Notes: generated from the letters alone by a model not told the origin. DNA of 39,720 nt from a virus (IMGVR_UViG_2706794676_000012), one strand, 5' to 3'; numbered from the stretch's first letter, positions 1 through 39,720 are shown. Translations and numbers: made by a program.

Positions 1-459
1 TTATTCAGTCGGCAGTGCTACGCGCCAGGGGAGCAGTTCGCCGACCCGGTTTATCGGCCAGTCGGCTATGACGTCAAGGACATAGCGGAGGTAGCTTTCT
101 GGCTCCACTCCGTTCAGTTTGCACGTCCCGATCAGGCTGTACAGCAGCGCTCCCCGCTCTCCTCCATGATCCGAACCGAAGAACAGGTAGTTTTTGCGGC
201 CCAGACTGACCATCCGCAACGCATTTTCAGCGATGTTATTGTCCGCCTCAGCCCAGCCATCATCTGCATAGTACGTCAGCGCCGGCCACTGGTTCAGGGC
301 ATATGCGAACGCTTTCGCCAGTTCTGAGTGTCGCGACAGGGTTTTCATCTTTTCACGCAGCCAGCTTTCCAGGGATTTCAGCAGCGGTTTCGTTTTCAAC
401 TGACGTTCGGCAAGGCGCTGTTTCAGCAGGAAGATGTCGTCAGAAGAGATGTCGTTCAT
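1..459 (-). CDS. IS66-family transposase (TnpC/Orf3) C-terminal fragment, N-terminally truncated
   Basis: Translation ...AKAFAYALNQWPALTYYADDGWAEADNNIAENALRMVSLGRKNYLFFGSDHGGERGALLYSLIGTCKLNGVEPESYLRYVLDVIADWPINRVGELLPW matches the conserved C-terminus of IS66 transposases. In-frame stop upstream at 520-522, so only ~150 codons remain; stop codon at 1-3. Confidence 0.8.
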   Translation of the reverse strand: MNDISSDDIFLLKQRLAERQLKTKPLLKSLESWLREKMKTLSRHSELAKAFAYALNQWPALTYYADDGWAEADNNIAENALRMVSLGRKNYLFFGSDHGGERGALLYSLIGTCKLNGVEPESYLRYVLDVIADWPINRVGELLPWRVALPTE

Positions 460-566
460 AAGCCCGTATTTTACCGGGCTTATTCTGTGACAACCAGGAT
501 AAAGAGATTTACAGCATGGTCAGGGAGGTCAGCAGCCGCTTAGGCTGTCTATAGCGCGGCGATTTT

Positions 567-632
567 TTTGATACCGATTTGCATTTCATTTGATACCGCT
601 GAAAAACGCCGATACGCAACTTATTTGATACT
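567..632 (+). repeat. Phage right-end (attR-like) cluster of three transposase-binding-like repeats
   Basis: TTTGATACC at 567-575 and 589-597, TTTGATACT at 624-632; the same motif occurs reverse-complemented at the other prophage end. Confidence 0.6.
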
Positions 633-677
633 AAATCGGCGCTTTTCTTTTGAGTTTTAGAATGAGTTTTTAAGCGT

Positions 678-1415
678 TCATTCACTCTCTTTCAAACCAG
701 TTTTAACTGTTTGTGGTTTTGGGTAAGGCTGGACTTTGAATAGCTTTGTGTTAAGGCGTTTTCTGGCTCTCTTGTCCAGAAACCGGATGTAACGAAACTG
801 ACGGAATTTATGAACACTGGCTCTGTCGATATTAGCCCGCAGATGTTCACCTCGCTGTCCTCCTCGTTTGATTGCATTCTTGCAAATCTCGTGATACCAC
901 TCGCCATCAAGTTCATAGAATGTTGTTTCATGACTGCCTACATAATCAAAATTGCTTGCCTGGTACACGACACCAAGACAGCCACAACGCTCATCTGCAA
1001 ACGACTGAACCCACTGCACCTGCGGATAAAGTTGTCTGATTAGTTTGAGCGCGTAACTGATTGCCCTTGATTCGGAGTTTCTCGGCATACAGTCATGCAG
1101 CCATAACCGGTTAAGCTCCATATATTCGCGGTTCTGCGTGCCAGTTACGACGCGTGCACCATTGTTTGGATTAAGGGCATAACCCCATTGCATTACGCCA
1201 ACCAGCTCCCGTTCTGAAAATATGCCCAGATGAAGGTAGGAATTATTTACGAAACGATGGCTGTAATGTTTATTGACGACGACCAGCCGGGCCAGCCAGC
1301 AACTTATTGTCTCAACCCGTAACTCACGGGAGCCATAACCGACGATATTGTCGTTATAGTGAATAAGTTCAGGCGTGCTGATGATACGGGATGTAACTTG
1401 CTTTCTGTTCCCCAC
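678..1415 (-). CDS. mom: Mom-like DNA modification protein (start uncertain)
   Basis: Last gene before the phage end, immediately downstream of and overlapping a Com-like zinc-finger ORF, as in Mu com-mom. The ORF is open to 1610 but that would cover all of com; the best internal start is GTG at 1415 preceded by AAGGA (1425-1429). Call is by position and size (~245 aa), not by a remembered Mom sequence. Confidence 0.6.
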
Positions 1416-1569
1416 GACAGGATTTCCTTGTGTATGTGGGGTGCTCTGTGGCGCTCTGAGATGTGATTTGATTGAGGGTTTTACAGCGCGGACATTTAAC
1501 TTCCAGATAACTGAAGCTGGCTCGTGCCAGTAGCTTGTTACAATGTCGGCACCGTATGTTTCGATACAT
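1369..1569 (-). CDS. com: Com-like zinc-finger translational activator of mom
   Basis: 66 aa [34 protein letters not shown]... with a C-x2-C...C-x2-C finger and the same N-terminal pattern as Mu Com (M-x-x-I-R-C-x-x-C-N-K-L-L). ATG at 1569 preceded by AGGAGG; the TTG at 1614 used by the ORF track is less likely. Confidence 0.75.
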
Positions 1570-1616
1570 GGCCGCATAACCTCCTGCTTTGTTGTTGATA
1601 TCTTTATCACTCAATC

Positions 1617-1702
1617 GATCGACAAAAACGATCGATTTGATTTATTTAATTGATACAACAAATAACACGAAATGTCATTAGCGAAAATTTATGAGTTTGA
1701 TC
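1617..1702 (-). promoter_or_regulatory. com-mom upstream regulatory region with three clustered GATC sites
   Basis: GATC at 1617-1620, 1630-1633 and 1699-1702 within ~130 bp upstream of com, in an AT-rich region. In Mu, three GATC sites upstream of the mom promoter mediate Dam/OxyR control. Confidence 0.4.
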
Positions 1703-1825
1703 ACTAATTTTAAACGGTGCTGTAACGCATAAGTGCTGAATGATTGTACATTTGAATACCGCAAAGCAAACAAATCAACTAATTTATAGAAGTCAATTGG
1801 TTAATTGCCAGCGTAAGAGGCTGCT

Positions 1826-2119
1826 ATGGACAATCATGTAACGACGAGAAATCGAAAAATGATTGAAAATGCGGAAATCTATAATGATTATTTTTCCGAT
1901 TATTCAGATGCCTGCAAATACAGTTCGAGTGCGGGAGAGTTCATATGCTTCAACTTTTTTATTAAATCTTATGTTTTTCCTCCACAGCAAGAAGATGGAG
2001 GTGTGCCACCTCCTGAAATCACTTTGCACCGTATAGCCTCCGTCTCAATGATGGAGCAACAGGCTAATGAGCTGTATAGCATTCTGGGAACGATTCTACA
2101 AAAGCGTGAATCGGACTAA
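1826..2119 (+). CDS. Hypothetical protein (97 aa), AT-rich cargo gene divergent from com-mom
   Basis: ATG at 1826 preceded by AAGAGG; AT-rich codon usage distinct from phage core; no recognisable domain. Confidence 0.5.
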   Translation: MDNHVTTRNRKMIENAEIYNDYFSDYSDACKYSSSAGEFICFNFFIKSYVFPPQQEDGGVPPPEITLHRIASVSMMEQQANELYSILGTILQKRESD

Positions 2120-2253
2120 TGATACCGGTTCATTTGCCTGCCCGGATGGGGAAGCAGGATTGACTGCTCCATAAGCAGCTATATTTCTGAATACGAAATA
2201 CTATCCAGCGATTACATATGGCTGGATAGCGGCAAAGATGTTTTCATTAGTGT

Positions 2254-38238: not shown

Positions 38239-38269
38239 GATTCATCTATCCTAAAAAGTTACGAAATTT

Positions 38270-38369
38270 GATAACTAAACTTAGTTATCAAGTTTGATAT
38301 AAGTATTGATCCACTTCTGCTTCATGTAAAGCAAAAAAAACATCTTTCTTTTGTCTATTGTGGATCAAT
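38270..38369. promoter_or_regulatory. Operator / divergent promoter region between ner and repressor
   Basis: Perfect dyad GATAACTAA-AC-TTAGTTATC (38270-38289); second inverted pair ATTGATCCAC (38305-38314) and GTGGATCAAT (38360-38369) 45 bp apart; AT-rich. Confidence 0.5.
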
Positions 38370-38423
38370 GGTTGCTGACAACACTAAAAGTTAATAATTT
38401 CAAATTGATAGGAAGAAAAGAAA

Positions 38424-38969
38424 ATGAACAAGCAAACAACAACATCTCTTTCTTTTCCTGGTGGTAGAAAAGAAAGCATTGCTGAGCGTCTGAAAAGGCT
38501 GATTGGCTCCCGCAGCGTCAGAGCTGCAGCAAGAGATTGGGGGCTTTCATTTTCAACACTAAACAATTATCTGTCTCGTGGCACTGAGCCATCCTTAAGT
38601 GTCGCCCTTCAGATTGCGTCTATCGAAGGAGTAAGTGTTGAGTGGCTATGTGGATTCAGTGATGCATCACAAGTGAATCGGTGTGAGATCAAGGAAAATC
38701 AAGATGAAAGCAAGAAGATAATTATGACGATTATCAGCGCACTTGATGAAAAAGACTTAGAGCAGCTATCGAAAAATTTGGTTCTGAATGGAGCCAAGTA
38801 CTTAGCTCGGTTGTTAGAGCCTGAAAATCAAGATCTAATCCGCTTAGAAGGAAGGAAAAGAATAGCTGCATTACAGCTTGAAGGTATGTCTGACGAACGC
38901 GTCAGAGAGATTTTGGAAGAAACTGAGAGAAGTCGCAAATCTAACGCGGTAGAACCAAAAGCGGGTTAA
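38424..38969 (+). CDS. Prophage repressor with XRE/Cro-type helix-turn-helix
   Basis: 181 aa; helix-turn-helix in IAERLKRLIGSRSVRAAARDWGLSFSTLNNYLSRG; divergent from ner across the operator region, at the genetic left end as for Mu c. Confidence 0.75.
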   Translation: MNKQTTTSLSFPGGRKESIAERLKRLIGSRSVRAAARDWGLSFSTLNNYLSRGTEPSLSVALQIASIEGVSVEWLCGFSDASQVNRCEIKENQDESKKIIMTIISALDEKDLEQLSKNLVLNGAKYLARLLEPENQDLIRLEGRKRIAALQLEGMSDERVREILEETERSRKSNAVEPKAG

Positions 38970-38989
38970 TAGCATTAGCCCGCATTTTG
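38961..38989 (+). terminator. Hairpin terminator candidate downstream of the repressor gene
   Basis: GCGGGTTAAT (38961-38970) AGC ATTAGCCCGC (38974-38983), 9/10 complementary, followed by ATTTT; contains the repressor stop codon. Confidence 0.4.
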
Positions 38990-39042
38990 CACTATATCGA
39001 GTATTTCGCATTGTTTGGAACGCCTTAAAAGACTAAAACCAC

Positions 39043-39198
39043 AGTATCAAATGAGTTGCCGATTTTATAATAAATGACTAATTATTGCACAATCGGTATC
39101 AAATAGACCTTATCCGCACATCTAGCCATCACCTGTTTTATTTCAGTATCTTACAGGTGATTTCACCTCCTTTCACTAAACCCCTTGTCGGTATCAAA
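39043..39198 (-). repeat. Phage left-end (attL-like) transposase-binding-like repeats
   Basis: GTATCAAA at 39043-39051, 39095-39103 and 39190-39198; one terminal site and two internal sites 90-150 bp in, as for Mu L1/L2/L3. Confidence 0.6.
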
Positions 39199-39202
39199 TG
39201 AT

Positions 39203-39526
39203 TCACCTGGTTATATGTCGCCAGTCGATACCTTCCAGCAGCATCGCCAGCTGCGCCTGTGTAAGGAACACTTTGCCATCACGGGCTGACGGCCAGGCGA
39301 AGCGCCCACGCTCCAGCCGTTTGGTCAGGAGGCACAGTCCGTCACTGGTGGACCACAGCAGTTTAACCTGACTGCCGCTGCGGCCCCGGAAAATGAAAAC
39401 ATGGCCGGACATGGGATCGTCTTTCAGCGCCGTCTGTACTTTCGCAGCCAGGCCGTTGAAGCCATTTCTCATATCGGTGATACCGGCAACCAGCCAAATT
39501 TTGATCCCGGAAGGTAACGGGATCAT
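39203..39526 (-). CDS. IS66-family Orf2 (TnpB), apparently truncated at its 3' end by the prophage
   Basis: MIPLPSGIKIWLVAGITDMRNGFNGLAAKV...GLCLLTKRLERGRFAWP...LLEGIDWR; ATGA overlap with upstream tnpA; its stop TGA (39203-39205) coincides with the predicted prophage terminus. Confidence 0.8.
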   Translation of the reverse strand: MIPLPSGIKIWLVAGITDMRNGFNGLAAKVQTALKDDPMSGHVFIFRGRSGSQVKLLWSTSDGLCLLTKRLERGRFAWPSARDGKVFLTQAQLAMLLEGIDWRHITR

Positions 39527-39720
39527 CGCTTCAGTTCCTGTATCAGCAGAGTCAGGAGCTTTTCGCTGACATTGCCATTGAAGCGGAGCGTCCCGTGCCG
39601 GAACGTTACCTCACAGCTGATACTGAGGGTTTTCGGGTCCTCTGCGAGCGATTCTGGCTGTTCGGCAGCTGCATCGAGAGTCACAGGAAGTAGCTGGGGG
39701 CTCTCTGAAGAAGGTAATAG
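39523..39720 (-). CDS. IS66-family Orf1 (TnpA), C-terminal part (5' end outside window)
   Basis: Open frame from window edge to TGA at 39523-39525 overlapping tnpB ATG. Confidence 0.6.
   Translation of the reverse strand, partial: LLPSSESPQLLPVTLDAAAEQPESLAEDPKTLSISCEVTFRHGTLRFNGNVSEKLLTLLIQELKR

Follow-up and report, generated by a model that had tools for sequence, protein, structure and literature searches.

The 39,720-nucleotide (nt) stretch of viral DNA analyzed here (IMGVR_UViG_2706794676_000012, hereafter the window) holds a Mu-like transposable prophage of the Sp18 type, lying at positions 550 to 39215 inside sequence of an IS66-family insertion sequence (IS) with the gene order tnpA-tnpB-tnpC. 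We conclude, with a probability of about 0.93, that the prophage inserted cleanly, with a 4-bp target duplication, into tnpB of an IS66-family copy that had already decayed; its junctions hold nothing unusual, and the case is an ordinary one. An earlier note on this DNA had found no target duplication and had proposed a rearrangement instead: either the phage inserted and neighboring DNA was deleted, or two IS66 copies recombined. That account arose because both phage ends had been misplaced and the duplication was thus missed; a seamless empty site, a 4-bp duplication and a deletion older than the phage all speak otherwise. Its broader description stands: Pfam profiles identify a Mu-type transposase, MuB, Gam, gpT, Mom and a Gin-like invertase in a gene order like that of Sp18, and both flanks are of IS66-family origin (TnpB_IS66 on one side, DDE_Tnp_IS66/IS66_C on the other; 99.3-99.4% DNA identity to an intact element).

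The phage ends were mapped by comparison with seven other insertions of the same lineage. Near-identical phage DNA occupies five unrelated Escherichia coli genes (encoding a diguanylate cyclase, bcsA, an ABC-transporter ATPase, paaA and flgL), and all five insertions start with TATAGCGCGGCGATTTTTTTGATAC, finish with GTATCAAATGATTCACCTGGTTATA and are flanked by 4-bp direct repeats (CGTA, CGTC, CGCC, TCAC and TGCG). The window prophage has the termini 5'-TATAGCGCGG...CCTGGTTATA-3' (TATAGCG...GGTTATA), runs from its mom end (550) to its repressor or c end (39215) and spans 38,666 nt, 1,528 of them masked as N. Two more distant relatives are likewise flanked by 4 bp, AGAG for Mu_JNE122137 and TAAA for Sp18 of strain Sakai, and the depositors of the former (GenBank LC727895.1) annotate the repeat as a "duplication due to insertion." A 4-bp flanking repeat thus accompanies eight of eight independent insertions, TGTC in the window included, with one verified against an empty site; exactly the window's termini are found in six of the eight, again counting the window. 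The first two bases at the mom end are TA in 8/8, and those at the c end are TA in the six insertions that have the window's termini and TG in Sp18, Mu_JNE122137 and a prophage of Shigella sonnei 53G (TATAACC vs TGTAACC); the 53G prophage, too, has TA at its mom end. We also considered a 5-bp duplication with one mismatch (CTGTC vs ATGTC) and rejected it: the c-end A belongs to the phage as its final base, since this position is invariably A in the six insertions with these termini, whereas the matching base outside the 4-mer at the mom end varies (C, G, A, G, A and C). The termini proposed earlier, TG at 546 and CA at 39204-39205, therefore give way to 550 and 39215, and the CCTGG at 39206-39210, which had been read as target sequence beside the phage, is part of the conserved phage end ...CACCTGGTTATA. 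In RefSeq, the "prophage Sp18" feature (NC_002695.2; 372-39130 of locus L022) is itself misplaced relative to the ends implied by the TAAA repeat, starting 1 nt inside the phage and ending 5 nt past its last base.

The flanks rejoin without a seam. Uninterrupted IS66 tnpB, as found at loci L001 and L002, reads ...CAGCCGCTTAGG CTGTC GCCAGTCGATACC... (in shorter form, ...GCTTAGG CTGTC GCCAGTCG...). With the boundary marked by a slash, the window's left junction (549/550) reads ...CAGCCGCTTAGGCTGTC/TATAGCGCGGCG... (...GCTTAGGCTGTC/TATAGCG...) and its right junction (39215/39216) reads ...CACCTGGTTATA/TGTCGCCAGTCGATACC... (...GGTTATA/TGTCGCCAGTCG...); the two flanks are therefore adjacent in uninterrupted tnpB, with TGTC at both sides of the phage. 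When 550-39219 is removed and 1-549 is joined to 39220-39720, the resulting 1,050 bp are 100.000% identical, ungapped, to six unoccupied chromosomal loci and 99.9% identical to four more, one of them in S. sonnei 53G (HE616528.1). These loci encode an intact 115-residue TnpB followed directly by the identical, deleted TnpC of 152 residues. A search of related genomes for the unoccupied site had been proposed as a check, and the site exists; where the earlier note had looked for an intact contiguous tnpC and a 5-bp duplication as the signs that would speak against a rearrangement, we find a contiguous pre-insertion sequence and a short duplication, but the former carries the old deletion and the latter is of 4 bp rather than 5.

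The empty site bears directly on the idea that the flanks stem from two IS66 copies, joined by homologous recombination between IS copies or between two prophage copies. The means for such an event are at hand: IS66-family sequences occupy up to 43 places per genome, some E. coli genomes have two to four places matching the phage, and the 3' part of the left flank is 99.8% identical to ISEc22 tnpC, with the tnpB side closer to ISEc8-type copies. Nevertheless, one intact type of IS66-family element accounts for both flanks (99.3-99.4% identity), the rejoined flanks match one contiguous unoccupied locus at 100% over 1,050 bp, and the same 4 bp stand at both ends, whereas recombinant flanks would share no duplication; we regard recombination between copies as very improbable. 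A related proposal, that the remnant is itself a chimera with an ISEc8-like 5' part and an ISEc22-like 3' part, was dropped, as the element type carried by the O104:H4 plasmid pAA matches both parts at 99.3-99.4%.

The missing part of tnpC has its own history. Aligned to the intact IS66-family element on pAA, a check that had also been suggested, the rejoined flanks form two collinear blocks: positions 405-1050 of the join match at 99.4%, straight across the insertion point, and positions 1-422 match at 99.3%. In the reference 1,080 bp separate the blocks, which share an 18-nt overlap, so that the approximately 1.1 kb reported as missing is exactly 1,080 bp. Positions 1-459, described before as the last ~150 codons of tnpC, are indeed a tnpC remnant (152 codons), but one in which codons 1-18 are fused in frame to the last 134 codons of the 512-residue TnpC. 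With the 360 lost codons went most of the DDE core, and Pfam accordingly reports only profile positions 195-283 of DDE_Tnp_IS66 (PF03050) together with IS66_C (PF13817); the IS66-family origin of the remnant is evident, and the encoded protein is predicted not to be a functional transposase. Positions 460-545, some 90 bp that had been called unrelated sequence, belong to the 49-nt tnpB-tnpC spacer (460-508) and the 3' end of tnpB (509-549); all of 405-549 is collinear with intact IS66 copies at 98-99%. The block overlap corresponds to an imperfect 18-nt direct repeat, AACAGCGCCT(G/T)GCCGAAC, present at nt 38-55 and 1118-1135 of intact tnpC, which looks like the signature of a repeat-mediated deletion. 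Because unoccupied loci already carry the same deletion, it is older than the phage insertion and unlinked to it.

These observations leave little room for a scenario in which ~1.1 kb of neighboring tnpC was lost through a Mu-promoted adjacent deletion, either as the phage entered IS66 or in a later transposition event, with no duplication left. About that much of tnpC is indeed missing near the phage, and replicative transposons such as Mu are known to cause adjacent deletions. Mu-promoted deletions, however, begin exactly at the phage terminus, whereas ~127 bp of intact IS66 sequence separate the nearest endpoint here (422) from the phage end (550); the 4-bp duplication is present; and the identical deletion is found in genomes with an intact, unoccupied tnpB. 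Since Mu-type phages do not normally excise precisely, such loci are hard to derive from an occupied one, and we consider the adjacent deletion still less probable than recombination between copies.

At the c end the insertion has left a recognizable trace. The phage severs tnpB 37 nt ahead of its native stop, and the upstream part (TnpB') retains 103 native codons (to ~39218) followed by HITR and a TGA stop derived from the duplicated TGTC and the phage end: native TnpB (115 residues) ends ...EGIDWRQPKRLLTSLTML, whereas the window's open reading frame (ORF) ends ...EGIDWRHITR, and its stop at 39203-39205 is phage DNA. The gene is thus split rather than intact to its stop, as had been thought, and that stop seemed to coincide with the phage terminus because the cut tnpB reads into the phage end. 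The TnpB' fusion protein, specific to this insertion, is found in 110 blocks of a public collection, among them one record above 1 Mb (CP176614.1, 4.93 Mb) and mostly draft contigs of 20-50 kb; one draft contig is 100% identical to the window outside a masked stretch. The insertion is genuine and has been sampled widely, and the genomes that carry it presumably form a clade. That the junctions are an assembly artifact, for example, a chimeric contig formed through repeated IS sequence, is hardly credible even though the window has six masked N-runs and stops 1 nt short of an IS3-family element skipped by one draft assembly, because the c-end junction with its TnpB' fusion recurs in many independent assemblies (the 4.93-Mb record and contigs from the 110 blocks), the junctions carry a matching 4-bp duplication, and the N-runs are all phage-internal and far from them.

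The deleted TnpC, as the exact 152-residue protein, is indexed in 457 blocks of the same collection by exact-protein look-up. It was through such look-ups that the locus was found, after nucleotide scans had not revealed it: exact-pattern scans for the deletion junction and the phage-IS66 junction had no match in the genome contig or viral contig collections, a megablast of 280-549 against complete E. coli genomes returned no single-piece match, and the same segment matched PLSDB plasmids only in two pieces, from Klebsiella, at 87.7%. In the chromosomes displayed, the neighborhood includes IS3- and IS110-family elements, a phage tail gene remnant, an IpaH-type effector gene with leucine-rich repeat (LRR) and novel E3 ligase (NEL) domains, and purL. 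In S. sonnei 53G (HE616528.1; locus L012, ~11125-20459), a related Mu-like prophage occupies the neighboring phage tail gene in the same orientation, only ~1.2 kb from where the window phage inserted. Its identity to the window phage is 78% in the repressor region vs 99.3% in the early region, and it is an independent insertion because the repressor region differs.

The remainder of the IS66 copy is likewise decayed. Its tnpA-tnpB part is 99.6% identical to the annotated genes of the intact element, and, once the phage is removed, the gene order tnpA-tnpB-tnpC and the 4-nt tnpA-tnpB overlap are collinear with annotated intact elements; Pfam gave no match for the 65-codon tnpA fragment alone. 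The earlier note had called tnpA intact, but the window includes only these 65 codons, and the gene is interrupted in complete genomes: a 1,264-bp IS3-family element, with a size and ORF layout that fit IS600, begins 1 nt past the window end (L009, 8145-9408; L019, 8542-9805). The draft contig L020 lacks this element and shows a 3-nt overlap at the join, which may reflect collapse by the assembler or a strain without it. At the unoccupied locus L009, which extends beyond the span of the window, the right inverted repeat ...GCACGCTTAC is intact, ~9 nt of the left inverted-repeat tip are missing, and the 8-bp target duplication of IS66 is not seen; in the pAA copy the terminal inverted repeats (GTAAGCG...) and an 8-bp duplication, AGTTGAAT, are present. 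Because tnpC lacks 360 codons, tnpB and tnpA are split and the left tip is missing, the copy in the window is, as judged from its sequence, a remnant that should be unable to transpose.

Several points weigh against the account given here. The mom-side junction is seen in the window alone: L019 and L020 were compared on the c-end side only, although the 47.9-kb contig L020 must span both junctions. The IS3-family insertion and the loss of the inverted-repeat tip may each have come before or after the phage. The 4-bp stagger is deduced from the junction sequences, and the sole pointer to the mechanism of the tnpC deletion is the repeat at its junction.

With these reservations, we posit the following course of events for a clean insertion into a dead element. 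The starting state would be an S. sonnei-type chromosome with a decayed IS66-family copy, whose tnpC had lost 1,080 bp in frame, most likely by slippage or illegitimate recombination at the imperfect 18-nt direct repeats, as in established cases of repeat-mediated deletion. An Sp18-type phage would later have integrated into tnpB of this copy by means of its own Mu-type DDE transposase and MuB-like ATPase. By analogy to Mu, whose strand-transfer chemistry is well established, both phage 3' ends (...TATA-3') would have joined target phosphates staggered by 4 bp, and gap repair would then have yielded the TGTC duplication. Transposition would have left tnpB cut ahead of its stop, with the upstream part reading into the phage end to the first stop. 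Coordinates of the features are collected in the table; domain calls throughout come from Pfam profile searches of the window ORFs.

Table. Features of the IS66-family remnant and the Sp18-type prophage, in window coordinates
Feature	Position	Strand	Basis or detail
tnpC remnant, 152 codons in frame	1-459	-	ATG 457-459, stop 1-3; Pfam and alignment to intact tnpC
Junction of the 1,080-bp internal tnpC deletion	405-422	-	Overlapping alignment blocks; sequence comparison
tnpB-tnpC intergenic spacer, 49 nt	460-508	-	Collinear with intact IS66 copies; matches unoccupied loci at 100%
Last 41 nt of tnpB with native stop (509-511), severed by the phage	509-549	-	Alignment
Target duplication TGTC, left copy	546-549	.	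Intact target GG C TGTC GCC; empty-site reconstruction
Prophage, Sp18-type, Mu-like, transposable	550-39215	-	Termini common to five other insertions; gene content
Three ATTTGATACCG-type repeats, mom end (putative)	566-633 (566-576, 588-598, 623-633)	+	Motif scan
com-mom DNA-modification module at phage right end	678-1569	-	Pfam Mom 1.6e-77; Com/Mom annotated in relatives; mom ~678-1415, com ~1369-1569
Gin-like serine invertase	5044-5616	-	Pfam Resolvase and HTH_7
Invertase and tail-fiber segment	5044-7019	.	Inverted repeats 5687-5835 and 6871-7019
gpT-type major head protein	18907-19854		Pfam
Gam	33020-33550		Pfam
Early transposition operon	34903-38238	-	Pfam and annotations of relatives
MuB-type AAA+ ATPase, 313 residues	34903-35844	-	Pfam Phage-MuB_C
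Mu-type DDE transposase, 695 residues	35918-38005	-	Pfam Mu-transpos_C (early-operon hit set PF09299, PF02316, PF09077) and HTH_Tnp_Mu_1
ner-like helix-turn-helix (HTH) protein	38008-38238	-	Early operon
Repressor, HTH, 181 residues	38424-38969	+	Pfam HTH_3 E = 2e-4, 21.8 bits, just below the 23-bit curated cut-off
Three ATTTGATACCG-type repeats, c end (putative)	39042-39199 (39189-39199, 39094-39104, 39042-39052)	-	Motif scan
Truncated tnpB' ORF, 107 residues	39203-39526	-	Pfam TnpB_IS66 (PF05717) E = 1.2e-37
Target duplication TGTC, right copy	39216-39219	.	Junction comparison; empty-site reconstruction
tnpA 3' part, 65 codons	39523-39720	-	4-nt overlap with tnpB start (39523-39526)

The mapped ends are flanked internally by repeats that we read as putative transposase-binding sites. 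The ATTTGATACCG-type motif has 21 matches in the window against 10 expected, and three of these lie at each end, in inverted orientation, with the first repeat of each set 16 nt from the mapped terminus; the termini proposed before would set them 20 and 5 nt from the ends. The mom-end repeats are closely spaced, and the c end has one terminal site, an 84-nt gap and two more sites, an arrangement that resembles Mu attR and attL, respectively.

Gene content fits a Mu-like phage throughout. A Mu-type transposase and a MuB-type ATPase stand beside a divergent repressor at one end, in the layout of Sp18; the repressor ORF diverges from the early operon, and relatives annotate a transcriptional regulator there. 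The inverted repeats of the tail-fiber region comprise 86 nt at 93% and 50 nt at 84% identity; the invertible segment, ~1.0-1.2 kb with a tail-fiber assembly gene inside, resembles the G segment of Mu, and relatives show it in both orientations. The interval from gin to com-mom holds cargo genes that Mu lacks (2904-4958 and 1826-2771), encoding a 684-residue DUF6645 protein, small DUF1378 and DUF826 proteins and a plus-strand ORF of 97 residues, in a region that varies among relatives. Six N-runs (8401-8650, 11227-11494, 12744-12993, 15215-15464, 26947-27206 and 29739-29988) make up the 1,528 masked bases; at the last of these the real sequence in L020 is 262 bp long vs 250 N in the window. 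A 1,516-residue ORF at 10207-14757 was rejected as a gene: it bridges masked N-runs, and relatives have three genes in its place, for tape measure, DNA circularization and baseplate proteins. ARAGORN found no tRNA in the window; PGAP annotates a "tRNA-OTHER" in several relatives between the virion morphogenesis and minor head genes (L003, 21591-21670; ~21640-21760 in the window).

The immediate consequence is the removal of a false lead, since an apparent phage-linked rearrangement turns out to be a clean insertion into a dead IS. More generally, applying Mu's rule of TG...CA ends and a 5-bp duplication to Mu-like prophages can create spurious rearrangements. Annotation of such prophages in E. 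coli and Shigella should benefit from the exact termini, the att repeats and the 4-bp duplication, and genomic work on S. sonnei could use the TnpB' fusion protein to mark a clade.

IS66-family elements of Enterobacteriaceae, including those of the ISEc8 and ISEc22 types and the pAA copy, share the tnpA-tnpB-tnpC order and a tnpA stop that overlaps the tnpB start, and the pAA copy has 99.3-99.6% DNA identity with the window flanks. Across 233 E. coli genomes the phage lineage sits at 284 places in a variety of genes, and the gene order is that of annotated E. coli relatives and of Sp18 of O157:H7 Sakai. The phage-collection records closest to the window phage come from Mu-like phages that reside within Shiga toxin (Stx) phages of Stx-producing E. 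coli (STEC), with 90-93% DNA identity along most of the genome; such phages have been described as Sp18-like and often inserted in other mobile elements (PMC10132054). Sp18-type Mu-like prophages and their variable locations are published (PMC2669165, PMC7430833, PMC10132054). Mu-like phages replicate by transposition and package their DNA with variable host sequence at both ends; for Sakai Sp18, packaging without circular forms is reported (PMC2669165). Sp18 and Mu_JNE122137 (LC727895.1) share with the window phage the order repressor, ner, A, B to gin and com-mom, the mom-end terminus, the att repeats, the 4-bp duplication and insertion at many unrelated sites, and differ at the c end, which is TA in the window phage and TG in these Sp18-like relatives (TATAACC vs TGTAACC). 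Some relatives, S. sonnei 53G included, have a different repressor/immunity region, with 78% identity there only. Literature searches within the searchable library turned up no account of a Mu-like phage with a 4-bp duplication; nonetheless, both Sp18-type prophages and, as a GenBank feature that is the only prior record found, their 4-bp duplication are already on record, which is why the case counts as ordinary. It is mildly notable that the lineage has 4-bp duplications and departs from the TG...CA ends of Mu.

Comparison with Mu itself brings out how much is shared and where the two part. Like Mu, D108 and SfMu, the window phage is a transposable temperate myovirus of ~37-39 kb with a divergent repressor, ner-A-B, Gam, Mor, gpT-type head genes, Gin with an invertible tail-fiber segment, and com-mom at the far end; Mu, too, has three transposase-binding repeats per end, with the attL/attR spacing to which the putative sites here conform. 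DNA similarity to these phages is nearly absent (~72% over only ~600 bp), and a search of PDB sequences with the transposase returned only a weak match, to MuA domain I-alpha. The target duplication of Mu is 5 bp (PMC8705779) and its termini are TG...CA, as opposed to 4 bp and TA...TA here; the window phage is thus predicted to work like Mu but is not Mu proper (Muvirus). TA...TA ends are also reported for transposable prophages of Leptospira, which, like B3, generate a 6-bp duplication (PMC8705779); they share the type of end with the window phage but are unrelated in sequence and host, and their duplication is of 6 bp rather than 4. The chances are about even that the Sp18-type transpososome differs from that of Mu in geometry and end specificity, making a 4-bp stagger and accepting a transferred strand that ends in TA-3' where CA-3' is nearly universal, as it would at the mom end in 8/8 insertions and at both ends in six, with the c end being TA or TG among close relatives. 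If this behavior is undescribed, the lineage would offer a natural system for learning how stagger length and the choice of terminal dinucleotide depend on the DDE active site and the architecture of the tetramer.

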